A stretch of DNA of 10,280 bases from a virus (lineage: Duplodnaviria; Heunggongvirae; Uroviricota; Caudoviricetes). Under the pieces are notes generated by a model, which worked only from the letters and a program-made list of their open reading frames with translations, did not search any database and was not told where the DNA came from. A program made the translations under genes and the position numbers. This document shows, piece after piece, positions 1 to 10,280 of the stretch. Position 1 is the first letter of the stretch; every line of letters starts with the position of its first letter. The DNA lies in the IMG/VR virus record IMGVR_UViG_2690316323_000007. One strand, written 5' to 3'.

Positions 1-1251
1 GTGCTTACCGATACAAAATTAAAAAACCTCAAGCCGCAGGACAAACTGTACAAGGTCTCCGATCGTGACGGGCTGTATGTAGCTGTGCTTACGTCAGGCA
101 CGGTCTCGTTTCGCTATGACTACCGTATCAACGGTCGCCGCGAAACACTGGTAATCGGGCAGTATGGGCGTGACGGTATCAGCCTGGCAGAAGCGCGGGA
201 AGAACTGATTGCTGCAAAGAAGCTGCTTAAAGCAGGCCAGTCGCCGGCTGCGGCTAAACGTGACGGTATCAAAAAGATTCGTGGTGCCGAGACATTTGCG
301 GTACATACCGACAGTTATATGAAACACGTCATCCTGGCTGAAAGTACCCGCGCAATGAAACAGGCGGTGATCGACCGTGACATACTTCCGGTTCTTGGCA
401 ATAAAATGATGGCTGAAATTACCACATCGATGGTTCGTGATTTGTGTGACCGGATTGTCGAACGCGGTGGCCGGGCAACAGCAGTGCAGGCCAGGGAGAT
501 CATCAGTAGCGTATACCGTCACGCCAATGACCGTGGTCATGGTTTGTTTAATCCTGCGGCTGACATTAAACCTTCGTCTATCGCCATATTTAAACCACGA
601 GAGCGAACACTGACACCAGAAGAAATTGGCCTGTTCTTCCGCACGCTGGATGCCATTGGTGCTATGGGCACTATGAAAATGGCTTTAAAGCTGGTGCTTA
701 TCACTATGGTTCGTAAAGGCGAATTCACCAATGCAACGTGGGATGAAATAGATTTTAAAAAATGGACATGGACAATTCCTTCAGACCGCATGAAGGGAAG
801 CCGGACGCACGTTATTTACCTGCCTAAACAGGCACAGGATATATTGGTTGGGTTGCAGATGTGCGCTGGTGGAAGTGAATATCTGGTTCCTGGTCGTTAC
901 AATTTCCGGAAGCCATTATCTAATGCCGCGCTGAACTCTCTGATCGACAGAACGGTGAAAATAATAAATGAAGATGGTGAGCATATTCAGGACTTCACCG
1001 TACACGATATGCGCCGTACAGCAAGTACGTTGTTGCATGAGGCTGGTTATCCTTCAGACTGGATTGAAAAGGCTCTGGCACATGAGCAGAAAGGTGTGCG
1101 CGCCGTATATAACAAAGCGGAATACGCCAGACAGCGCGCCTACATGTTGCAGCAGTGGGCCGATATGATTGATTCCTGGATTGACGGGGAGCATACGGAT
1201 CTGATTCCGTTCTCCCCGTCGAAGTTTGAGAAATGGATGGCGGGGGAATAA
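1..1251 (+). CDS. Tyrosine recombinase / phage integrase, P4-like family (416 aa, GTG start at window position 1; upstream context not visible)
   Basis: N-terminal arm-type DNA-binding region (MLTDTKLKNLKP...DGLYVAV...FRYDYRINGRRETLVIG) and C-terminal catalytic region with H-x-x-R (HDMRRTASTLL) and a candidate catalytic Tyr (VRAVYNKAEY). Stop TAA at 1249-1251. Because the ORF starts at base 1, the true start could lie further upstream. Confidence 0.9.
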   Translation: MLTDTKLKNLKPQDKLYKVSDRDGLYVAVLTSGTVSFRYDYRINGRRETLVIGQYGRDGISLAEAREELIAAKKLLKAGQSPAAAKRDGIKKIRGAETFAVHTDSYMKHVILAESTRAMKQAVIDRDILPVLGNKMMAEITTSMVRDLCDRIVERGGRATAVQAREIISSVYRHANDRGHGLFNPAADIKPSSIAIFKPRERTLTPEEIGLFFRTLDAIGAMGTMKMALKLVLITMVRKGEFTNATWDEIDFKKWTWTIPSDRMKGSRTHVIYLPKQAQDILVGLQMCAGGSEYLVPGRYNFRKPLSNAALNSLIDRTVKIINEDGEHIQDFTVHDMRRTASTLLHEAGYPSDWIEKALAHEQKGVRAVYNKAEYARQRAYMLQQWADMIDSWIDGEHTDLIPFSPSKFEKWMAGE

Positions 1252-1258
1252 TTTTGCC

Positions 1259-1276
1259 CGGCACATCCCTGTGCCG
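1259..1276. terminator. Short hairpin between convergent genes (CGGCACA-tccc-TGTGCCG); possible weak bidirectional terminator
   Basis: Perfect 7-bp inverted repeat with a 4-nt loop in the 31-bp gap between the integrase stop (1251) and the Bro-N gene stop (1283). No clear U-tract on either side, so terminator function is uncertain. Confidence 0.3.
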
Positions 1277-1282
1277 CCGCCG

Positions 1283-1975
1283 TCAGAAGAACTCTGCTTT
1301 GTCGTTGATGTACTCCGCGTGCGTCTGGATATCACGCAGGCATTTGCTCACACCAACGATGTAGCAGAACATGGTGGTCAGCTCCGCCGCCGCGCCCGAT
1401 ACGTCGTGCCCGTCTTCCTGTAACTGGTTCAGCAGATTCATCAGCAGTGAGTTCTCCGTCAGGCCGAGAACACCAGACGGAGAATGAATCAGGCTACGGT
1501 AGCCGGGCTTCAGCGGGGCGCTGTAGGTTTTGTTCTCTATCTTCATTGCCTGCATCACTGCTGATGCTGTGGCGTTGGCTACCTGGTCGGCAACCATCTT
1601 TATGCGTTCTTCCTGCGGGAGCGAGTTTTTAATGTAACTTCCGGTGCGGCGGATCTGAGGAAGAACCTCACCTGTAACCCATTCAAGAAATCTGAATGCT
1701 CTCGTTCCCTCAGTCATTGCCTCTTTGCAACGCAGAATAAGGATGTAGAGACCTGATTCTGAAACGATGGATAGTTCTTGTATTCCACCAGGGGTCTGTA
1801 TTGAATACAGCCCCTTTTTGTTCCAGCCTTTTTTATCAAGTTTTCTCGCTTGTGTAACATCAATATTCAAAGCATTGCACACATCTTTGGTGACAAACCA
1901 AGGTTCTCCGTCAATCATGAACATACGGATCTGGCAGGATGACTCAAAGGAAAAGATGGAAGGTTTGGTATTCAT
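1283..1975 (-). CDS. Bro-N domain protein (antirepressor-like) with a C-terminal domain that is paralogous to the 85-aa protein at 3359..3616
   Basis: Six-frame ORF 1283..2020 trimmed to the internal ATG (1975..1973 on minus), which has an RBS (AAGGTGA) about 6 nt upstream. The N-terminal half matches the Bro-N pattern (FSFESSCQIRMFMIDGEPWFVTKDVCNALNI...GLYILILRCKEAMTEGTRAFRFLEWVTGEVLPQIRRTG). The C-terminal ~70 aa align with the small protein at 3359..3616. Confidence 0.85.
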   Translation of the reverse strand: MNTKPSIFSFESSCQIRMFMIDGEPWFVTKDVCNALNIDVTQARKLDKKGWNKKGLYSIQTPGGIQELSIVSESGLYILILRCKEAMTEGTRAFRFLEWVTGEVLPQIRRTGSYIKNSLPQEERIKMVADQVANATASAVMQAMKIENKTYSAPLKPGYRSLIHSPSGVLGLTENSLLMNLLNQLQEDGHDVSGAAAELTTMFCYIVGVSKCLRDIQTHAEYINDKAEFF

Positions 1976-2001
1976 GGCGATCACCTTTGTAGTTAGGTTA
2001 A

Positions 2002-2034
2002 TCACCACCGCTGAGACCAATCAGATGGTGGTGA
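2002..2034. promoter_or_regulatory. Inverted repeat TCACCACC-N17-GGTGGTGA in the Bro-N gene upstream region; candidate operator
   Basis: Perfect 8-bp arms at 2002-2009 and 2027-2034, located about 27-60 bp upstream of the Bro-N start codon on the minus strand. Function is inferred from position only. Confidence 0.3.
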
Positions 2035-2162
2035 ACTGTGCAGAGTTGGTCTTACCGGCTACAAAGGAACCCGGCGCACCTTTCGGTGCCCCCACACAGC
2101 CCACCATAGAATAGGTGCGCTTTACACATAAAAAAACCGCTTATGCGGCATATGTGCCTCTG

Positions 2163-2216
2163 TAGTAATCCGGGAGACCAATCCCGGCACTGGATTTTGC
2201 CAGTGCCCGATTACTA
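2163..2216. other. Nested stem-loop element in the divergent intergenic region (candidate RNA structure or protein-binding site)
   Basis: Inner stem CCGGCACTGG (2184-2193) / CCAGTGCC(G) (2200-2208) with loop ATTTTG; outer arms TAGTAATC (2163-2170) / GATTACTA (2209-2216). The 9-mer GAGACCAAT occurs both at 2175-2183 inside this element and at 2013-2021. No flanking U-tract, so it is not a classical terminator. Confidence 0.35.
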
Positions 2217-2335
2217 TGGCACAAGAGGAGTGCGATGTAAATTTACCGCAAAGGTAATAATAAATGCATAACTCACGTTATTTCAACCCTATGTGGTTTG
2301 ATTGATCCCATTTCAGAAAATACCTGCCTATTTTT

Positions 2336-2365
2336 TTGCCAGTATGCGTATACTTTCGATAGAAT
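2336..2365 (+). promoter_or_regulatory. Candidate sigma70 promoter for the two-gene operon (TTGCCA-18 nt-TAGAAT)
   Basis: -35-like TTGCCA at 2336-2341 and -10-like TAGAAT at 2360-2365 with an 18-nt spacer, about 55 bp upstream of the ATG at 2419. Confidence 0.45.
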
Positions 2366-2418
2366 GTTTACCCTAGAGGTAGTTGGGGGGGCCCGTGAAC
2401 ACGAAGAGAGCTACAGTA

Positions 2419-2838
2419 ATGCAGCATTTGAGGAAATCAGAAAAAAATAAAGACCATGAAATATTGAGTAAGGCCATTGTTCGGGCTTCCAATAATACTG
2501 TTATACCTCATGCTGAAGAGACTGGACAGAAATTTCTTATTCGGTATTTCACTGAAAATAGTGCAGTTGAGGAGATTTTAAAACATCAGGGAGGGGAATT
2601 TAAATGTGGAAAACTGGCAGATTATGTTCGTCGTGAAACGTCTGAACAAGAAGTATATTATGCTGATATTAATCATAAGTCAGGTGTGAAAATTGTAATA
2701 GGCTATTACACAACTCCCAAAAATGTTATGCATGAGGTCCCAAAGATGTCCGTCGAGAAATCTCATGCAATCTCGCGCAGGATGTTTGCACGCACTGCCG
2801 AAGATATGGCTCAGGAGCTCTACGACGATGCTGAATAA
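2419..2838 (+). CDS. Hypothetical protein (139 aa), first gene of a translationally coupled pair; candidate antitoxin/partner of the downstream gene
   Basis: ORF 2383..2838; start assigned to ATG 2419, which has an RBS-like AAGAGAG about 9 nt upstream (alternatives: GTG 2395, TTG 2383). No family recognised by eye; acidic C-terminus (ELYDDAE). Its stop TAA (2836-2838) overlaps the downstream start inside the string ATGCTGAATAA. Confidence 0.7.
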   Translation: MQHLRKSEKNKDHEILSKAIVRASNNTVIPHAEETGQKFLIRYFTENSAVEEILKHQGGEFKCGKLADYVRRETSEQEVYYADINHKSGVKIVIGYYTTPKNVMHEVPKMSVEKSHAISRRMFARTAEDMAQELYDDAE

Positions 2839-3334
2839 ATTCCAGGGGTTGGTTCACCCTGGAATTTTTGGGAAGGACCCTGAGCTAATACCTATCAAAA
2901 ACGCGTTCATAGATCACTGGCGCTACGGTCATCATAAGGATTTCGGAAAGGACACTCTGTTTCGGGATCCACCGAAAGAGATGCTGGAATATCACATACG
3001 CCACGTTCACGTAAACATCGGAAACTATACTGACAAGTTTGGTGAGAGCGGTACGGAACAATGCTGGAAAAACTGGGCATCCGGGAAGAAAGACAAGACC
3101 ACCAACAAGCATAAAAAAATACCAACCAGTGATGTGTATGTGATTTATCTTGTAACGTCTGAGCGACATGCGTTTCTTCTGGATTACTGGGATGAGCCAG
3201 CACACAAAAAAGTAGAAATTGACGAACAAAAACAAAAACTTCTTGTCGAGTGTGACAGAATTTTGCGGCTGAAAAATTTAGAATCCATGCCGCGCGATGC
3301 AAGTTTGTGGGACCCGGAATTTTACGACTGTTAA
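2828..3334 (+). CDS. Hypothetical protein (168 aa), second gene of the pair; weak resemblance to YafO-family type II toxins (tentative)
   Basis: ORF 2723..3334 trimmed to ATG 2828, which overlaps the upstream stop by 11 nt. Recalled YafO-like features: FGKD/FGRD-type motifs (IFGKDPE, DFGKDTLFRDPP), HIRHVHVNIGN, and a C-terminal block VYVIYLVTSERHAFLLDYWDEPAHKK. Confidence refers to the CDS call; the family assignment alone is about 0.4. Confidence 0.7.
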   Translation: MLNKFQGLVHPGIFGKDPELIPIKNAFIDHWRYGHHKDFGKDTLFRDPPKEMLEYHIRHVHVNIGNYTDKFGESGTEQCWKNWASGKKDKTTNKHKKIPTSDVYVIYLVTSERHAFLLDYWDEPAHKKVEIDEQKQKLLVECDRILRLKNLESMPRDASLWDPEFYDC

Positions 3335-3335
3335 T

Positions 3336-3360
3336 GGCCGCTCTTGCGGCCTTTAAATTT
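3336..3360 (+). terminator. Candidate rho-independent terminator after the two-gene operon (GGCCGC-tctt-GCGGCC followed by TTTAAATTT)
   Basis: Perfect 6-bp GC stem (3336-3341 / 3346-3351) with a 4-nt loop and a T-rich tail, sitting between the convergent stop codons at 3334 and 3359. Confidence 0.45.
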
Positions 3361-3616
3361 ACCGGGTTTGTTTTCGTAATTGTTCGGCACAATAGTCGAG
3401 ATGTGTTTGCAGATCCCGCATAGACATCTGTGAGCTGGTGACGTAGTTAATCAGTGCAGTCAGTTCGGCAAGTGGGCCATCGACATTAAATCCATCCTTA
3501 TCGAGATCCCGGAGTAATTTCATCAAGTGCGATCCCTCCACCAGTGACCTGACGCCTCCCGGCGTGTGAATCCTTTCGGTAAATCCGTCTTCCAGTGGAT
3601 AGTGATACTGCTGCAT
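3359..3616 (-). CDS. Small protein (85 aa), stand-alone paralog of the Bro-N protein C-terminal domain; predicted SOS-regulated
   Basis: ORF 3359..3634 trimmed to the ATG at 3616 (MQQYHYP...), which has an RBS GGAGAAG about 7 nt upstream; the ATG at 3634 lies inside that RBS. Shares about 40% identity by eye with residues ~160-231 of the 1283..1975 protein (IH[ST]P.GV..L.E.S.LM.LL..L..DG..V.G..AELT...Y......RD[IL]QTH). A LexA box sits 20 bp upstream. Confidence 0.7.
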   Translation of the reverse strand: MQQYHYPLEDGFTERIHTPGGVRSLVEGSHLMKLLRDLDKDGFNVDGPLAELTALINYVTSSQMSMRDLQTHLDYCAEQLRKQTR

Positions 3617-3635
3617 CTTATCTTCTCCATGCAAT

Positions 3636-3655
3636 AACTGTATATTTATACAGTA
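3636..3655. promoter_or_regulatory. LexA (SOS) box: AACTGTATATTTATACAGTA
   Basis: Matches the E. coli LexA consensus TACTGTATATATATACAGTA at 18 of 20 positions, with both CTGT and ACAG half-sites intact and 8-bp spacing. Lies immediately upstream of the minus-strand small gene (start 3616) and within the divergent region shared with the tail fiber gene. Confidence 0.75.
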
Positions 3656-3691
3656 TCAAATAATTTGTTTGCTATCCAGCACGTTTTGCAA

Positions 3692-3758
3692 ATTACCTGA
3701 AAGGTAATATCTGTTCGTATTCACACCCTTTCTATCCATATGTGGTTTTTCAGGTAAT
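3692..3758. promoter_or_regulatory. Cluster of GGTAAT half-sites upstream of the tail fiber gene (palindrome ATTACC-tgaaa-GGTAAT plus a further AGGTAATA copy)
   Basis: Palindrome at 3692-3708; AGGTAATA repeated at 3702-3709 and 3752-3759; TACCTGAAA (3694-3702) is the reverse complement of TTTCAGGTA (3748-3756). No good sigma70 -35/-10 pair is apparent for the tail fiber gene. Confidence 0.35.
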
Positions 3759-3811
3759 AGAATAACCAGATATGCGGCGCAACGGGTGCTGCGACTATCT
3801 GGAGATTTAAC

Positions 3812-6787
3812 ATGACGGTCTCAACCGAAGTTGACCACAACGAATACACAGGTAACGGCGTTACGACATCATTTCCGTATACCTTTAGGGTTTTCAAGGA
3901 ATCTGATCTGGCAGTACAGGTGGTTGACCTTGACGAAAATATCGCTGTGCTGGCTCTTGATACTGATTACACTGTCACTGGGGCTGGTGGATATAATGGC
4001 GGTAATGTAATTCTGTCGAAGGCGTTAGCTAACGGTTATCAGATTTCTATATCACGAGAGCTACCGGTTACGCAGGAAACTGATCTGCGAAATCAGGGAA
4101 AGTTTTTCGCTGAGGTGCATGAAGACGCGTTAGATAAGCTGACGATGCTGATACAGCAAGTCCGCAGTTGGTTTAGCCTGGCGCTGCGCAAACCATCATT
4201 TGTGGCAAACTATTACGATGCTTTGAATAATTACATCCGCAATTTGCGCGATCCTTCCAAGCCTCAAGATGCAGCTACAAAGAATTATGTTGATAATATT
4301 GTTAATGTGAATATTAACAGGACATTACGGGTTCCAGATAATTTTATTGAACCACTTCCTCCAGTTCATTTACTGGAAGAAACTGTCATTGGTATCGTCA
4401 ATGGTAAACCTATAGGTGTACCTGTGCCTTCTGGCAGTGCCGCAGATGTTCTTCTGCAATTATCTAGCGCAGGAGAAGGAAAAGGAGATGCATTAATTGG
4501 TGTAAGGCAGCCATTTGCCGGGGCTGTAACTATAACTCAGCATGAAAACAATGCTCTTTTCTTAAATGTAAAACAATTCGGAGCAATTGGGGATGGGAAA
4601 TATCATCCATTATCTGAGAGGTTTTCTTCAATTTCTGAAGCAAAATCCTTATATCCTTTTGTTGACTCATTATCTCAGTCAATAGACTGGGCCGCGTGGC
4701 AAGCTGCCATTAACACAGGAAAGGTTATTTATGGTACTGATAATGCGTATGTAATAACGGATACGTTAACACCTGTTTCTGGTGGTGGGATAATTGGTCT
4801 TGGTGTGGGCAAATGGGTCTCTGGATATACTGCAACATTTGCTCCTGATATTACCACAGGGACCACATTCCTGATGTACGGTGTAGGAAATAAAAAATAT
4901 ACTGTAGATTGTGTTTCTAATATGGATGTTAGTGGTGGTGTGGTTTCTAATCCATCTTCCGAAGACCCGTATACAACAACGGCACCTGCGTCATCATATG
5001 ATTTATTGGATTTTACTAACGGTGATGCTAATGGGGCTACAAGAGCCACGCTTAAACCATTCTCTGCCGCAATATTGATGCCAGAGACAGGATGTGTTCG
5101 CCTTGAGAACTTTCGTATTGTTCCATATTTCAATGGGCTGGATGGTTATAAAGACATTGCAAATACCGGTCTTGGCGATGAGTGGGATGTAGGTATTTGG
5201 TCACGTGCGTCTTTTGGCAATGAATACCGCAATTTGCAGGTGGTTGGATACTGGCGCAAGACGGCACTTTTAAAAACGAACATTCCTGTATCTGGCACGC
5301 TGGCCGCTCAGGGCGAGGATGAAAACTATTATCACTGTAGATTCCAGGGATTCAAGGGTGTTTCGATCCGCGCCCATGATGTATTCCGAATTACAGCGGT
5401 AACGTCCAGCACTATCGAAATCCCATGGTCATCAAGCCACACCTTCGAAACGTCCGGGGTTTTAAGATCGGGAGGCAGGAATTTCACTTATTCAGGATTA
5501 TCCGTATCCGGTGATAAGTTAGTATTTACTGGAGTGTCTAACGCTTCTGAGGCAACAGTAGGTTCTACTATACGGCGAAATGACATAGATAACTTTGGTA
5601 TGGCGGGAACGCAATTTTTCGATTGCTACATTACCAGCCTGTATCACCACACACATCTGCTTGCCACATCGCAATACCTGTCTCAGCCATTCAGCCGGCC
5701 ATCAGAGTGTATGGAGGTTTCAGGGGAACCAGTTCGCGGTGTACAGGTACATGCAGGAACCATTCAGGGATGGGATGATGTTCTTATTCATCTGCATGAC
5801 TGTGGAAATATGAACTTTTACAGTACATATTTCGAAAGCCAGCCAGCATATGTAACTATAAATGGTGGTAATGCTATTGGTTATGGAGCACGTATGATAG
5901 CTTCCAGGCAATCAACAAGCTCATTACCATATGCAGCAGGGAATACTCGAGTGCTTAGAATGGTCGGGTGCTCTGAAGGCAATGGCGTTGACTGGGGTCC
6001 TGTATTTAACAACTATACAGGAGGAAGATATAATTCTGGAGACGGTGTATTTAACCCCCGCGATGCATTTGTAGACCATAAATCTCTTCCTGAGCAGTCA
6101 GGAGGTGAGTCAAGACTCGTATCACAAAAAGGAAATGCCAGAGTAGTATGTGGTGTTGGTAAAACTGTACTGCTTGGACCAACTTCAGGAGATTGTAATT
6201 TACAGAGTAATACTGGAAGTTTAAATATTAGAAGTGGGATAAGAGTAAGAATCGGTCACGCTGATGGAACAGACTGGTGGTTGGCAGATGCTAATAAAAT
6301 AGCTCCTGTTGATGATAATGTTAAAGCTATTGGACAGCCATCAAACAGATGCTCTGTTATCTATGCAGGAACCGGGTCAATCAATACGTCAGATGAAACT
6401 CTTAAAACAAGATATGATATTCTTAATGCAGAGCGTGATGCCGCTATTGAAATAAAGTCAGTCATCTATAAATTTAAATTTAATGACTCAATTAATCACA
6501 AAGGAATTGAGTCGTCCAGGTATCATTTTGGCGTTGGCGCTCAAACCGTAGGGGATATTCTTAGAAAGCATGGTTTAAACCCTGAGCAATATGCTTTTTG
6601 GTGTTACGATGAATGGCCTGACGTATGGGATGAAGAGGTGATAACTGAAGAGAGCACAGATCCTGATACAGGTGAGAAAATTTATTCTCAATATAAAACA
6701 GGAGATATGATTCTTGTAAAAAAAGCAGGAGGACGCTACGGAATTCGTTATGACGAATTAGCCATGTTTATATTAATGTCAATGTAA
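3812..6787 (+). CDS. Tail fiber / tailspike protein (991 aa) with T7 gp17-like N-terminal adaptor, central pectate-lyase-like beta-helix (putative depolymerase) and C-terminal intramolecular chaperone (peptidase S74-like) domain
   Basis: ATG 3812 with GGAG 7 nt upstream. N-terminus (YTGNGVTTSFPYTFRVFKESDLAVQVVD...DYTVTG) resembles podovirus tail fiber N-terminal domains. Central region has the beta-helix start motif (NVKQFGAIGDGK...DWAAWQAAINTGK). C-terminal ~130 aa (SDETLKTRYDILNAERDAAIEIKSVIYKF...YHFGVGAQTVGDILRKHGL) resembles the self-cleaving chaperone of endosialidase-type tailspikes. Confidence 0.85.
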   Translation: MTVSTEVDHNEYTGNGVTTSFPYTFRVFKESDLAVQVVDLDENIAVLALDTDYTVTGAGGYNGGNVILSKALANGYQISISRELPVTQETDLRNQGKFFAEVHEDALDKLTMLIQQVRSWFSLALRKPSFVANYYDALNNYIRNLRDPSKPQDAATKNYVDNIVNVNINRTLRVPDNFIEPLPPVHLLEETVIGIVNGKPIGVPVPSGSAADVLLQLSSAGEGKGDALIGVRQPFAGAVTITQHENNALFLNVKQFGAIGDGKYHPLSERFSSISEAKSLYPFVDSLSQSIDWAAWQAAINTGKVIYGTDNAYVITDTLTPVSGGGIIGLGVGKWVSGYTATFAPDITTGTTFLMYGVGNKKYTVDCVSNMDVSGGVVSNPSSEDPYTTTAPASSYDLLDFTNGDANGATRATLKPFSAAILMPETGCVRLENFRIVPYFNGLDGYKDIANTGLGDEWDVGIWSRASFGNEYRNLQVVGYWRKTALLKTNIPVSGTLAAQGEDENYYHCRFQGFKGVSIRAHDVFRITAVTSSTIEIPWSSSHTFETSGVLRSGGRNFTYSGLSVSGDKLVFTGVSNASEATVGSTIRRNDIDNFGMAGTQFFDCYITSLYHHTHLLATSQYLSQPFSRPSECMEVSGEPVRGVQVHAGTIQGWDDVLIHLHDCGNMNFYSTYFESQPAYVTINGGNAIGYGARMIASRQSTSSLPYAAGNTRVLRMVGCSEGNGVDWGPVFNNYTGGRYNSGDGVFNPRDAFVDHKSLPEQSGGESRLVSQKGNARVVCGVGKTVLLGPTSGDCNLQSNTGSLNIRSGIRVRIGHADGTDWWLADANKIAPVDDNVKAIGQPSNRCSVIYAGTGSINTSDETLKTRYDILNAERDAAIEIKSVIYKFKFNDSINHKGIESSRYHFGVGAQTVGDILRKHGLNPEQYAFWCYDEWPDVWDEEVITEESTDPDTGEKIYSQYKTGDMILVKKAGGRYGIRYDELAMFILMSM

Positions 6788-6797
6788 TAATAAATGC

Positions 6798-6837
6798 AAT
6801 AACCCCGAATAAAACAGCGGGGTTATTGTTATTATAA
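6798..6837 (+). terminator. Rho-independent terminator downstream of the tail fiber gene
   Basis: 10-bp stem AATAACCCCG (6798-6807) / CGGGGTTATT (6818-6827) with a 10-nt loop, followed by the T-rich stretch GTTATTATAAT. Confidence 0.6.
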
Positions 6838-7080
6838 TAATGATCTTAACTTCTTAAATGATATTTATATGCACTTGGATTATTAAATCTATATTATGCC
6901 TGTTATTTATGTGTTCTGTTATATGTTTTGCAGGCACTGTTGGCAGCATTAAAGGAAATTGTATTTATGGCGAAATAGCTGGTATCGTGTTTTTATTGTG
7001 CGTAAAAATAACAGACTGCATATATTATTGTATAAAGTTTTGGAAATGAAAACACTCAAACTTACCGCTGTGGATATGTT

Positions 7081-7109
7081 TTGACCATCGCGAATTGGAT
7101 TGGTAATAT
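7081..7109 (+). promoter_or_regulatory. Strong sigma70-like promoter upstream of the lysis cassette (TTGACC-17 nt-TGgTAATAT, extended -10)
   Basis: -35 TTGACC at 7081-7086, 17-nt spacer, -10 TAATAT at 7104-7109 preceded by TG at 7101-7102. Located about 85 bp upstream of the first lysis gene. Confidence 0.55.
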
Positions 7110-7120
7110 TGGGTAACAAA

Positions 7121-7136
7121 AAACCATAAATGGTTT
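7121..7136. promoter_or_regulatory. Perfect 16-bp palindrome AAACCATAAATGGTTT just downstream of the predicted transcription start; candidate operator
   Basis: Arms AAACCAT (7121-7127) and ATGGTTT (7130-7136), separated by AA. Sits between the promoter -10 and the RBS AGGAGG (7161-7166). Confidence 0.4.
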
Positions 7137-7193
7137 ATCATGCGTAATGCTTTACTGTTCAGGAGGTAGTTATGCATATAAACGGTGGAAAAC

Positions 7194-7598
7194 ATGTCAG
7201 CTCAACTAACCAGTGAAACTTTAAATCAGTGGCTTAGCATGAGTTCTTTGGCGGCAGTGATAGCAGGAGTTCCTCCTGAGGTTGCTTTGGGGTCTTTGGC
7301 TGGGGCGGTGATTTTTGTTACCTCTGCGGTAGAGTATCCCATTCGTCGTCGCGTGCTCTTGTCGATGCTTAGCTTTCTCTGCGGACTTCTATTCTACAAA
7401 CCAGCAGCATCAATTCTTATCGGCATAGCCAGCCTGATCCCTACAATCACACAGGATTCTTTCGAGAAAGGGATTGTTTTCTCTGCCGGTGCATTTGTGT
7501 CAGCAATCGTCGCTGTGCGAATTGGGATCTGGCTCTATCACCGTTCCGATAATCCACGCGAGTTAATTCCGGGGAGAAAAGACGATGGTAACTCATGA
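7194..7598 (+). CDS. Holin-like membrane protein (134 aa from ATG 7194; 137 aa if GTG 7185 is used), about 4 predicted transmembrane segments
   Basis: Hydrophobic stretches LAAVIAGVPPEVALGSLAGAVIFV, VLLSMLSFLCGLLFY, ASILIGIASLIPTI and IVFSAGAFVSAIVAVRIGIWLY, with a charged C-terminus. First gene of an overlapping operon with the endolysin. Two in-frame candidate starts (GTG 7185, ATG 7194). Confidence 0.65.
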   Translation: MSAQLTSETLNQWLSMSSLAAVIAGVPPEVALGSLAGAVIFVTSAVEYPIRRRVLLSMLSFLCGLLFYKPAASILIGIASLIPTITQDSFEKGIVFSAGAFVSAIVAVRIGIWLYHRSDNPRELIPGRKDDGNS

Positions 7599-7893
7599 GC
7601 TTTTTTTGCTTATCACCAATGCGGTTATTTGCGCCGGTATAGCAGTTCGAGTTGCCACATTTCGGAGAAACGGTTCTCAACACAGGCGATGGGGTGGGTG
7701 GCTTGCTTATTTCCTGATTGTTGCTGCGGCCAGCATTCCAGTTCGTGTCGCTTATGCAATCTGGTTACGCACGCCAATGGCTGTGGATTTATCTGAGGTC
7801 ATTATCAACGCTGTCATGCTTGCCGCGGTTATTAAAACACGCGGTAACGTTGTTCAGATTTTCAAAATATCGAGGTCTAAACATGGAGATTAA
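7585..7893 (+). CDS. Second small membrane protein of the lysis cassette (102 aa; holin or antiholin-like)
   Basis: ATG 7585 with GGGGAGA 6 nt upstream; overlaps the upstream gene's stop by 14 nt in a different frame. About 3 hydrophobic segments ([53 protein letters not shown]). Its stop (7891-7893) overlaps the endolysin start. Confidence 0.65.
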
Positions 7894-8512
7894 ACAATTC
7901 CAGCGAGCTGCTGGTATTAGCGAGGCGCTGGCCGCACGCTGGTTCTCGCATATAACTTCTGCGATGAAAGAGTTTGGTATCAGCAAACCAGAAGATCTGG
8001 CAATGTTTATTGCTCAGGTCGGGCATGAGTCTGTGGGCTTCACCCGGTTGCAGGAGAATTTCAACTACAGCGTCAGCGGACTGGCTAACTTCGTTCGGGC
8101 TGGGCGTCTCACTCAGGGGCAGGCTAATGCACTGGGGCGACGTGCTGGTGAGCCACCATTGCCACTCGAGCGCCAGCGAGCGATCGCCAATCTGGTGTAC
8201 AGCAAACGCATGGGGAACAATGCCCCTGGTGACGGCTGGAACTACCGTGGGCGCGGACTTATCCAGATTACCGGTTTGAATAACTATCGTGACTGTGGAA
8301 ACGGTCTTAAGGTTGACCTGCTGGAGAGTCCTGAACTGCTGGCGCAGGACGAATACGCGGCTCGTAGCGCGGCGTGGTTCTTCTCCAGCAAAGGCTGCAT
8401 GAAGTATACCGGAGATATTGCACGTGTAACTCTGCTTATCAATGGTGGCCGGAACGGCATTGATGACCGGCGCGCGCGATACATAACTGCCAGTAAGGTG
8501 CTGGCGGTATGA
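7883..8512 (+). CDS. Endolysin, glycoside hydrolase family 19 (chitinase-like lysozyme), 209 aa
   Basis: ORF 7718..8512 trimmed to ATG 7883 (GAGG 7 nt upstream). GH19-type motifs: [45 protein letters not shown]. No N-terminal transmembrane segment. Confidence 0.85.
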
Positions 8513-8991
8513 TCTGGGCATTCGCAAAAGCATACTGGAAACAGTTGGTTATCATGGCGATGCTTGCTGTTCTGGTCATATCAGGAGTTGTAGCCTGGAA
8601 TGCACACGGCAGTCGTCAGTACGATGCCGGGTATGCGCAGGCGAAGGAAGACCGCAAAGCTGAAGATGAGATAGTTCGTCAGCACTACGAACAGGAGAAA
8701 TCGATCAATGAACGTGAAGCGCAGCAGAGGATCGACCAGGCGCGCAATGATGCTCTTGATGCTGCCGCTCGCGCTGGCCGGTTGCAGCAACAACTCTTTG
8801 CCATCCGTGAGCAGCTCAGGCAGTATAACGCCATTGTCGGCGCTGGGACGTCAGCCGCAGACACCGGAGTTTTGCTTGCCGACGTGCTCAGCAAATCTCT
8901 CGAGAGAAACAGACAACTGGCAGAGTATGCTGACCGGGCAGCCGAAGCCGGAAGAGTCTGCGAAAAACAATACGACACCCTGACCAGATAG
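8509..8991 (+). CDS. Rz-like inner-membrane spanin (i-spanin), 160 aa
   Basis: Start ATG overlaps the endolysin stop (ATGA at 8509-8512). N-terminal transmembrane segment ([18 protein letters not shown]), a long charged/coiled-coil-like region ([38 protein letters not shown]), and a C-terminal Cys. Confidence 0.8.
8708..8983 (+). CDS. Rz1-like outer-membrane lipoprotein spanin (o-spanin), 91 aa precursor, fully embedded in the +1 frame of Rz
   Basis: Lipoprotein signal peptide with positive n-region ([12 protein letters not shown]), hydrophobic core and lipobox LAGC (Cys at residue 26); Pro-rich mature part. RBS-like AGGAG 10 nt upstream. An alternative start at ATG 8747 would give too short a signal peptide. 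Confidence 0.7.
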   Translation: MNVKRSRGSTRRAMMLLMLPLALAGCSNNSLPSVSSSGSITPLSALGRQPQTPEFCLPTCSANLSRETDNWQSMLTGQPKPEESAKNNTTP

Positions 8992-9072
8992 CATGGCATT
9001 TTTCATGGTACTGATTTCCGGTGACGGTATATAAAACGGTACTAGAAAAATGAAGTTTTGGAAAAATGTTAT

Positions 9073-9109
9073 CACTCAATTAGTTATGATTGTCGTAAAT
9101 AATTGAGTG
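9073..9109. repeat. 10-bp inverted repeat CACTCAATTA-N17-TAATTGAGTG in the junction region between the lysis cassette and the flanking genes
   Basis: Perfect arms at 9073-9082 and 9100-9109. Could be a protein-binding site or part of the island boundary; no function can be assigned from sequence alone. Confidence 0.35.
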
Positions 9110-9141
9110 GGAATGATTTGAACCCTGTACTATGAATGAAC

Positions 9142-9171
9142 AAAACCCTCTGTTACTACAGAGGGTTTTTT
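9142..9171. terminator. Bidirectional rho-independent terminator (AAAACCCTCTG-ttacta-CAGAGGGTTTTTT)
   Basis: 7-bp GC-rich stem flanked by an A-tract upstream and a T-tract downstream. Lies about 40 bp beyond the stop of the minus-strand gene 9210..9749 and about 150 bp after the Rz stop. Confidence 0.7.
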
Positions 9172-9209
9172 ATACTCACGAATCATAGGCTTGAAGTTAC
9201 TGACATCGC

Positions 9210-9749
9210 TTAGTTAAACCAGCTGTCCGATTTGTTCTCTTCTGCTTTACCCACGCTTTTCATCAGATCGCGACCGCCTTCAGTCATATTTCTGTTTGCG
9301 TCAGCTTCAGATTGCACCACATCGGTTTGCGCAGCTTTGTGCTTCAGTTCCTGATCGATAAATTCGTTTTCGCGCTTAACGCGGGCTTCTTCTTTCGCCA
9401 GCGCCAGTTTTTGCTTCTGAATCTCTAAGCTACGTAGCTCATCTTCATAACTTTGATCGCGTTTTTTGTCCGCAGTGGCTTCGGCGTCCAGTTTATCCTG
9501 ACGAGCTTTCTTATTCGCTGCTGCCGTTGCCGCTCTTTTATTAGCCGCGGCCTGGGCGTTTGCGCGACGTTGCTTCTCTTGCTGGATTTCCCTGTTGCGC
9601 TCCGCGACCCATTCGTCATGCTGCCTTTGCTCTTCATTTTTACCTTGCTGTTCCGCTTCTGCGACAGCCGAGAGTTGATCCTGCAATGATGAGGCGATAG
9701 CCGGATAGCTTAAGGAGGCTAAGATGGCGCAAAGAAAAACTTTCTTCAT
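9210..9749 (-). CDS. Secreted (periplasmic) charged, Ala/Gln/Lys-rich protein with N-terminal signal peptide, 179 aa; probable chromosomal gene
   Basis: Signal peptide MKKVFLCAILASLSYPAIASS; strong RBS AGGAGGAG immediately upstream; low-complexity coiled-coil-like body. Length and context are reminiscent of the enterobacterial yfgI gene but I cannot confirm identity from memory. Confidence 0.8.
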   Translation of the reverse strand: MKKVFLCAILASLSYPAIASSLQDQLSAVAEAEQQGKNEEQRQHDEWVAERNREIQQEKQRRANAQAAANKRAATAAANKKARQDKLDAEATADKKRDQSYEDELRSLEIQKQKLALAKEEARVKRENEFIDQELKHKAAQTDVVQSEADANRNMTEGGRDLMKSVGKAEENKSDSWFN

Positions 9750-9764
9750 GACTCCTCCTGATTA

Positions 9765-10280
9765 TTAGCTCTTTTCAGGACATTTGGTATTTGGCTGAAT
9801 ACGCGTTTCGTTATACGTCGTGGTAATAACAACGGCTAAACCTGTCGTAAACTGGCACTCTTTACCCACCTGGGTGGAGGTATACACTTTGGTGCCTTCC
9901 TTATATGTTAAAGAAACACCTTCCACTAAGGTTTTATCATTCACCATAGAACCCGCTGCTGCGCCAACAGCTCCGCCGCCAACTGCACCTGCTGTCGTTC
10001 CGGAATTGCTGCCAGACCCGACGTTGTGGCCGATAACACCGCCAGCGACAGCGCCAATAAGCGCGCCGAAGGCTTGTGCGTTCCGTTTATTTTGGGCGTT
10101 GTCTACGGCAACTTTTGCGGGAAGAATGGAAATAATATTAACGGTTTTAGTTTCTTGTTTGGTATTCAGTTGATCGGTTTGATAAACATCGGCGGCATGA
10201 TCATCAGCATTTGACTGGCATCCTGCCAGAGTAAATGACGCTAACATTGCCACAGGCAGAAGACATTTTTTTAATTTCAT
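9765..10280 (-). CDS. Lipoprotein with glycine-zipper motif, 171 aa; probable chromosomal gene; start codon at window end
   Basis: Lipoprotein signal with lipobox LAGC (MKLKKCLLPVAMLASFTLAGCQ) and a Gly/Ala-rich zipper segment (GALIGAVAGGVIGHNVGSGSNSGTTAGAVGGGAVGAAAG). Its stop lies 15 bp upstream of the next gene's start, suggesting an operon. Reminiscent of yfgH-type lipoproteins, unverified. Confidence 0.8.
   Translation of the reverse strand: MKLKKCLLPVAMLASFTLAGCQSNADDHAADVYQTDQLNTKQETKTVNIISILPAKVAVDNAQNKRNAQAFGALIGAVAGGVIGHNVGSGSNSGTTAGAVGGGAVGAAAGSMVNDKTLVEGVSLTYKEGTKVYTSTQVGKECQFTTGLAVVITTTYNETRIQPNTKCPEKS

Follow-up and report, generated by a model that had tools for sequence, protein, structure and literature searches.

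What does the gene at positions 3812..6787 (plus strand) of the viral record IMGVR_UViG_2690316323_000007 encode, and which bacterial surface polysaccharide would its product act on? A prediction made from the letters of this 10,280-nt stretch (here called the window) described a tailspike with a β-helix of the polysaccharide-degrading kind and a self-cleaving C-terminal chaperone, and held that the substrate could not be predicted. By eye from the sequence this last statement stands, but the co-occurrence of genes in host genomes does point to a candidate, the K13/K20/K23 type of capsule. With a probability that we put at roughly 0.8, the product of the open reading frame (ORF) is the only tailspike, or receptor-binding protein, of a temperate podovirus that resembles epsilon15 and phiV10 and has inserted between guaA and yfgI in Escherichia coli. 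The protein is a tailspike of an ordinary, well-understood type, with a virion anchor, a putative sugar-cutting β-helix and a folding chaperone predicted to cleave itself off.

The ORF listing of the window gives one 991-aa frame at 3812..6787 (plus strand), with an ATG start, a stop codon and a GGAG ribosome-binding site ~8 nt 5' of the ATG. This ORF and its motifs far exceed chance expectation. Its translation contains FGAIGDGK at residue 256, AAWQAAINTGK at residue 294 and SDETLK at residue 860. The codon for Ser860, TCA, lies at 6389-6391, exactly where it had been placed beforehand, and that for Lys865, AAA, at 6404-6406. PHROG 1171 ('tail spike protein') matches the protein end to end (E=0), which bears out its identification as a tailspike. 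RefSeq WP_089552410.1, a 'tail fiber domain-containing protein' found in many E. coli and some E. marmotae assemblies, is identical in sequence, and the same 991-aa protein is encoded on many E. coli contigs. A scan for promoters and terminators around the gene performed no better than on shuffled sequence. The gene is organized as follows.

3812..6787, plus strand: complete tailspike ORF, 991 aa
3812..4186, plus strand: N-terminal virion-anchor domain of the epsilon15/phiV10 (Uetakevirus) type, residues 1 to ~125
4187..4477, plus strand: low-confidence linker, residues ~126-222
4478..4558, plus strand: module junction, residues 223-249, beginning KGDALIGVRQPF
4559..6091, plus strand: right-handed parallel β-helix, a putative depolymerase, residues ~250-760, with the FGAIGDGK...AAWQAAINTGK cap
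Residues ~540-575: small β insertion within the β-helix
6092..6388, plus strand: C-terminal stalk ahead of the cleavage site, residues ~761-859
6389..6784, plus strand: Peptidase S74 intramolecular chaperone domain, residues 860-991

To model the protein, we used AlphaFold2 with an alignment of 96 family members (24-69% identity). The model has a mean predicted local distance difference test (pLDDT) score of 84.9, with values of ~95 across the central domain, which is built as a β-helix. When the model was compared with known structures using Foldseek, the top matches were LKA1 gp49 and phi297, and the best structural matches of the β-helix are all depolymerising tailspikes, lyases or epimerases. 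Structure prediction had been named in advance as a check on the β-helix, and the domain passed it. The proposed start motif of the helix, FGAIGDGK...AAWQAAINTGK, also proved to be truly homologous to the beginnings of two crystallized chains, since residues 251-313 match the start of LKA1 gp49 (E 1e-16) and of phi297 (E 1e-13). Relatives of the central domain are numerous, with 1,241 found at E<=1e-3 and 153 at E<=1e-30, counted as representatives of 50%-identity clusters. In the 96-member alignment, R520 and E675 are present in all 96 sequences, H612 in 95, D459 and R642 in 93, and E635 in 92; R435 (91), D523 (90), Q512 (88) and Y446 (88) are conserved to a slightly lesser degree. The carboxylates D459, E635 and E675, together with H612, R520 and R642, constitute a candidate active site.

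Evidence that the C-terminal domain belongs to the S74 family comes from sequence homology, from a Ser/Lys dyad at its N-terminal border and from its fold. Pfam PF13884 matches residues 860-922 with 22.9 bits, against a gathering cut-off of 22, and phmmer searches of the PDB returned 7y5s (8e-23), 9vvr (2e-15), 3gw6 (2e-14), 4uw8 (6.5e-12), 6eu4 (4e-11) and 3gud (2.7e-9). In alignments with five solved S74 chaperones, Ser860 and Lys865 fall in the columns of the Ser (or Ala) and Lys: S860-D-E-T-L-K865 is aligned to TSDARLK in 7y5s, VSDARDK in 9vvr and VSDARKK in 6eu4, and to TANGERK in 3gw6 and TADARLK in 4uw8, where the serine was mutated to alanine for crystallisation. The Ser-x-x-x-x-Lys arrangement that had been picked out by eye thus corresponds to known catalytic positions, and the conservation of the dyad among known S74 domains, also proposed as a check, is confirmed. 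TSDxxxK is the consensus among family members with this C-terminus (Ser in 59 and Lys in 50 of 87 aligned rows). Residues 870-991 are modelled with pLDDT ~90 or higher, and Foldseek recovers the chaperone fold (3gw6, E 2.7e-10, probability 1.0; 4uw8, 1.6e-9; 3gud, TM(target) 0.75). Autocleavage is predicted to occur immediately before or at Ser860, with Lys865 as the base. A degenerate S74 module that aids folding and stays uncleaved is improbable: the PF13884 score is barely above threshold and cleavage of the tailspike protein is so far unobserved, but both dyad residues are in place, the motif is the family consensus and E-values against solved structures reach 8e-23.

The stalk that precedes the cleavage site can be aligned to the corresponding segment of 3gw6, 7y5s and 4uw8, and Pfam End_tail_spike matches residues 825-859 with 22.6 bits, under its 25-bit cut-off. 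Because the confidence of the monomer model is only moderate here (pLDDT 55-85), the stalk is probably intertwined in the trimer. G+C content falls from 0.44 in the β-helix (4559-6091) to 0.36 in the chaperone (6389-6784) within the one ORF. This drop is consistent with a mosaic gene and suggests a separate evolutionary origin for the chaperone module.

The domain order, the fold and the intact Ser860/Lys865 dyad come from the sequence or the structure model; the steps of folding, cleavage and glycan attack described here follow the known behaviour of these families. For EndoNF, T5 pb1 and related proteins, the folding and cleavage steps of the S74 domain are established. By analogy, three C-terminal chaperone domains would nucleate folding of the trimer, and Ser860, activated by Lys865, would then cut its own chain. 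A fragment of ~132 aa would leave, and the mature trimer, with ~859 aa per chain, would be kinetically stable. The anchor (residues 1 to ~125) docks the spike on the phage tail, and the β-helix would bind and cleave surface polysaccharide, letting the virion reach the outer membrane.

Over its first 483 nt the gene is 78-88% identical to the 5' ends of tailspike genes from PAS61, TL-2011b, phiV10, O157 typing phages and Salmonella E15-like phages, and beyond nt 483 the gene has no match to these phages. The N-terminus thus carries the anchor specific to the genus Uetakevirus. This anchor also matches the N-terminus of the Dpo31/Carin1 tail fibre in the PDB (E 2.7e-25) and, by Foldseek, 8ck1 (TMt 0.62), with pLDDT >90 at residues 10-80. 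Confidence falls below 50 in the linker at residues 125-133 and 144-206. A module junction lies at residue 223. From there (KGDALIGVRQPF...) to the C-terminus, BLASTP finds a 97% identical module fused to a P22-type head-binding domain in other prophages, as part of 901-aa tailspikes carrying Pfam PF09008, and the neck of the Sf6 tailspike matches residues 221-270. Four complete genomes carry both versions of the module, epsilon15-type and P22-type. The receptor-binding module that starts at residue 223, with its β-helix (residues ~250-760) and stalk (residues ~761-859), is therefore exchangeable.

The Uetakevirus tailspikes of phiV10, epsilon15 and PAS61 have the same N-terminal anchor (nucleotide identity 82-88% across the first 483 nt), and their genes likewise precede the lysis cassette in phages that integrate at guaA. 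Their receptor-binding domains, in contrast, have no relationship in DNA sequence and are specific for the O-antigens O157, Salmonella O3,10 and O146. The closest phage homologue of the central β-helix is in the spike of Escherichia phage YZ1 (Kayfunavirus), with 79.9% identity across 98% of the domain; in Vectrevirus phages the module is 42% identical. YZ1 is lytic and T7-like, and its spike has another N-terminal anchor, whereas the present spike has an epsilon15-type anchor and resides in a temperate prophage remnant, and both spikes are known from sequence alone. LKA1 gp49 and phi297 gp61 of Pseudomonas phages (PDB 4ru4, 4ru5) are only 12-21% identical beyond the cap; they act on the O-specific antigen of P. 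aeruginosa and are without the S74 chaperone. The gp51 tail fibre of Klebsiella phage Kp7 (PDB 7y5s) belongs to a different host and capsule, with a helix identity of 13%. The K1F EndoNF and CUS-3 endosialidase tailspikes have the same C-terminal S74 chaperone with its Ser/Lys dyad (3gw6, E 2e-14), and these K1-specific spikes follow the same design, in which a spike directed at a capsule sits on an anchor that can be exchanged. In EndoNF, however, the catalytic domain is a β-propeller sialidase acting on polysialic acid rather than a β-helix. CUS-3 provides a precedent for a P22-like temperate phage with a capsule-specific, chaperone-bearing spike.

Which glycan would the β-helix cleave? The YZ1 subtype has been reported in prophages of O102, O6, O1 and O153 hosts, with a target that is 'most likely' something other than O-antigen, for example K antigen (Pas et al. 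2023, PMC10408124). To look for associations, we used 5,426 complete E. coli genomes, of which 15 carry the central domain at >=98.8% nucleotide identity. These carriers include at least three O-types (O1, O102 and O153-like) and at least two lineages. EC21Z-144 is O1, as judged by the PGAP names of wzx and wzy. The O1 wzy gene occurs in 92 genomes overall and in only 2 of the 15 carriers, and specificity for O1 was rejected on this basis. LS45 has a different O cluster, common to SMS-3-5 and a strain named CE-O153H30, which was found in 78 genomes and 6 of the 15 carriers. Specificity for this O153-like type was not adopted, as one lineage accounts for the six and YDC107 is O102. The his, wzzB, ugd and gnd alleles of YDC107 differ from those of the other carriers compared, placing it in another lineage. 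EC21Z-144 and LS45, on the other hand, have identical his, wzzB, ugd and kps region-1 proteins despite their different O clusters, so O-switching has occurred within this lineage. In LS45, copies of IS1 flank gnd. Compared with K-12 and EC21Z-144, the chromosomes of HS4, SBF22 and LS45 have one large rearrangement in common, and ~0.5 Mb from yfgI, the expected place of the rfb region, they have the helD-putA region instead. K-12 map distance was unusable for these three genomes owing to the rearrangement, and their rfb locus was located with small probes.

In EC21Z-144, three elements make up region 2 of the kps locus: the remnant of a transposase, an acetyltransferase of the hexapeptide type and a 1113-aa ORF named 'HAD family hydrolase'. 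Residues 1-356 of this ORF match PDB 9yfx, 'KrKA', with an E-value of 1.8e-236, and residues 396-729 match the ribofuranosyltransferase/phosphatase region of Bcs3. By homology, the region-2 polymerase gene is krkA. A ribose-ribitol-phosphate capsule (K100/K18) was also considered for the 1113-aa gene and rejected, as its N-terminal domain is the KrkA of K13. The same locus organisation has been published for the E. coli K13 strain NCTC9022 (PMC12887879). KrkA alone polymerises ->3)-beta-D-Ribf-(1->7)-beta-D-Kdop-(2->, a backbone of ribose (Rib) and 3-deoxy-D-manno-oct-2-ulosonic acid (Kdo) common to K13, K20 and K23 (PMC12887879; PMC13171606). With a 1.2-kb segment of krkA as marker, we detected the gene in 65 genomes, 11 of the 15 carriers versus 54 of the 5,411 non-carriers (odds ratio 273; Fisher p 4e-19). 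Among the krkA-positive carriers are strains of the O1, O153-like and O102 types, and krkA is also present in three of the four genomes that have the P22-type fusion only. That krkA occurs in most carriers across several O-types makes the Rib-Kdo capsule a likelier target than the O-antigen.

A number of observations weigh against assigning a capsule-degrading enzyme in this way. Pfam has no match between residues 164 and 824 even at E<=1, the NCBIfam scan has none to the central domain, and no Pfam, NCBIfam or CAZy-type model covers the β-helix, which is matched only by PHROG 33794 ('unknown function') and PHROG 1171, so that the helix could be a hydrolase or a lyase. Four of the 15 carriers (OZ547246, LS45, XH992 and 23CRST013) are without the krkA segment. 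LS45 has an identical kps region 1 but a different type of region 2 (GT2/glf versus the krkA type in EC21Z-144). The capsule association is confounded by clonality, in that most carriers of the epsilon15-type prophage belong to a single lineage, in which the his, wzzB, ugd and kps region-1 proteins are identical, and the O153-like marker is likewise enriched among carriers (p 3e-8). The krkA marker cannot separate K13, K20 and K23. Finally, the searched literature contains no report of the phage YZ1 receptor or of a sequenced enzyme from a K13/K20 phage, nor anything on ST354 tailspikes or on a 'bacteriophage-associated glycanase' acting on Kdo. As regards LS45, its capsule looks like it was switched after lysogeny. 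Since LS45 and its lineage-mate EC21Z-144 differ in both the O cluster and kps region 2, both O-antigen and capsule have, judging from their gene content, been swapped around a resident prophage.

A rival reading is an O-antigen-specific tailspike, as most temperate phages of the epsilon15 and P22 kinds have, with the mixed O-types of the hosts resulting from vertical inheritance of the prophage while the hosts exchanged their O-antigen clusters. The tailspikes of Uetake- and Lederbergvirus are textbook O-antigen depolymerases (PMC10408124), one O153-like cluster is common to six carriers, and O-switching between EC21Z-144 and LS45 is evident. We nonetheless regard this explanation as unlikely. 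At least three O-types in at least two lineages are involved, including O102 YDC107 with its different flanking alleles, and the same module occurs in two unrelated prophage types and a lytic phage. Other O1 strains have the same prophage backbone with a different tailspike, the krkA association is far stronger than that of any O marker, and Pas et al. reject O-specificity from their own list of O102, O6, O1 and O153 hosts. It is similarly doubtful that the β-helix only binds glycan, or that it cleaves some other shared polymer (colanic acid, enterobacterial common antigen or another K type) and the krkA link is an artefact of lineage. The krkA gene co-occurs with the module in carriers that differ in O-type and prophage type. 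Conservation of ten polar or charged residues, three carboxylates included, at 92-100% among proteins of 24-69% identity is typical of an active site and unlike a variable binding surface, and the nearest structures, as noted, are those of glycan-degrading or glycan-modifying proteins.

Overall, these data make it plausible, in our view at about even odds, that the substrate of the tailspike is a group 2 capsule of the K13/K20/K23 type, ->3)-beta-D-Ribf-(1->7)-beta-D-Kdop-(2->, rather than an O-antigen. More tentatively, and with somewhat less confidence than in the substrate itself, residues 223-991 may be the first phage enzyme of known sequence to depolymerise the Kdo-ribose capsules (K13/K20/K23) found in extraintestinal pathogenic E. 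coli. It would then stand for a large β-helix family (the 1,241 cluster representatives) that lies outside curated databases and has its own conserved active site (D459, E635, E675, H612, R520 and R642). A genus-specific anchor joined to a swappable β-helix and an S74 chaperone is a well-established architecture and nothing new. The protein itself is already known, having been deposited in identical form under a generic name, and the YZ1-like subtype was discussed in print in 2023. Only the proposal of K13/K20/K23 specificity is new.

The window is 100% identical to positions 6190-16469 of a contig in E. coli assembly GCA_000397685.1, on which the gene order is xseA, guaB, guaA, integrase, BRO-N antirepressor, three small ORFs, tailspike, lysis genes, yfgI and yfgH. 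Other features of the window are listed here.

1-2020: left end of the prophage remnant (integrase and antirepressor), with an apparent deletion junction within 1260-1525
1-1251, plus strand: tyrosine integrase (Pfam)
1283-2020, minus strand: hybrid BRO-N antirepressor gene (Pfam)
7185..8991, plus strand: lysis cassette 3' of the tailspike gene
7185-7598 and 7585-7893, plus strand: two holins
Ending at 8512, plus strand: GH19 endolysin
8509-8991, plus strand: DUF2514 i-spanin
8708-8983, plus strand: embedded lipoprotein ORF inside the DUF2514 gene
9210-10280: yfgI and yfgH

In related genomes, the same right arm is part of a full-length 38.6-kb prophage of the epsilon15/phiV10 type, in which ejection and SLT proteins are encoded 5' of the tailspike and the integrase adjoins guaA. 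No complete prophage of the Uetakevirus type surrounds the tailspike gene in the window, where the distance from integrase to tailspike is only 2.5 kb. Positions 1-1525 are 98.9% identical to the left end (int and antirepressor) of a full prophage of this kind, and positions 1260-10280 are 99.93% identical to the right arm of a full prophage. These two matches overlap inside the antirepressor gene, which resembles a hybrid of two antirepressor paralogues of full prophages, the one near int and the one near the tailspike. The simplest reading is that recombination between the two paralogues deleted about 30 kb and left a ~9-kb remnant, a setting that the earlier prediction did not mention. Its tailspike and lysis genes have stayed intact. 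Between guaA and yfgI no head, tail or replication gene is left, and the tailspike here cannot by itself make an infective particle. In the O1 strains FDAARGOS_497, Ecol_881, ECONIH1 and RS571, the same prophage backbone occupies the same guaA-yfgI site with an unrelated 'glycosyl hydrolase family 28-related' tailspike.

Two further ORFs were noted 3' of the tailspike gene. The one at 8708-8983 encodes 91 aa, is out of frame within the DUF2514 gene and has a lipoprotein signal (LALAG|C). It is likely an Rz1-type o-spanin nested within the i-spanin gene, and it is unannotated in the RefSeq relatives that we looked at. The other lies in the 397-bp spacer (6788-7184, G+C ~35%) between the tailspike and the first holin. 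This ORF (6858-7049) is also unannotated, encodes a hydrophobic, Cys-rich product of 63 aa and has no Pfam match. In related phages the same spot is sometimes occupied by surface-modification or exclusion genes.

The useful part of this work is a testable substrate assignment that is cheap to check. Of the capsule types, K13_K23 ranks with those most strongly linked to invasive disease by E. coli (kTYPr study, PMC13171606), and no sequenced depolymerase for the K13_K23 capsule was found in the searched literature. If the assignment is true, a K13/K20/K23 spike could be used as a typing reagent, as an anti-virulence enzyme or as a swap-in module for engineered phages or tailocins, and it would resolve one 'multi-serogroup' receptor-binding subtype left open by Pas et al. 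(2023). The case also illustrates that the rule relating a prophage to the O-type of its host fails where the spike targets capsule.

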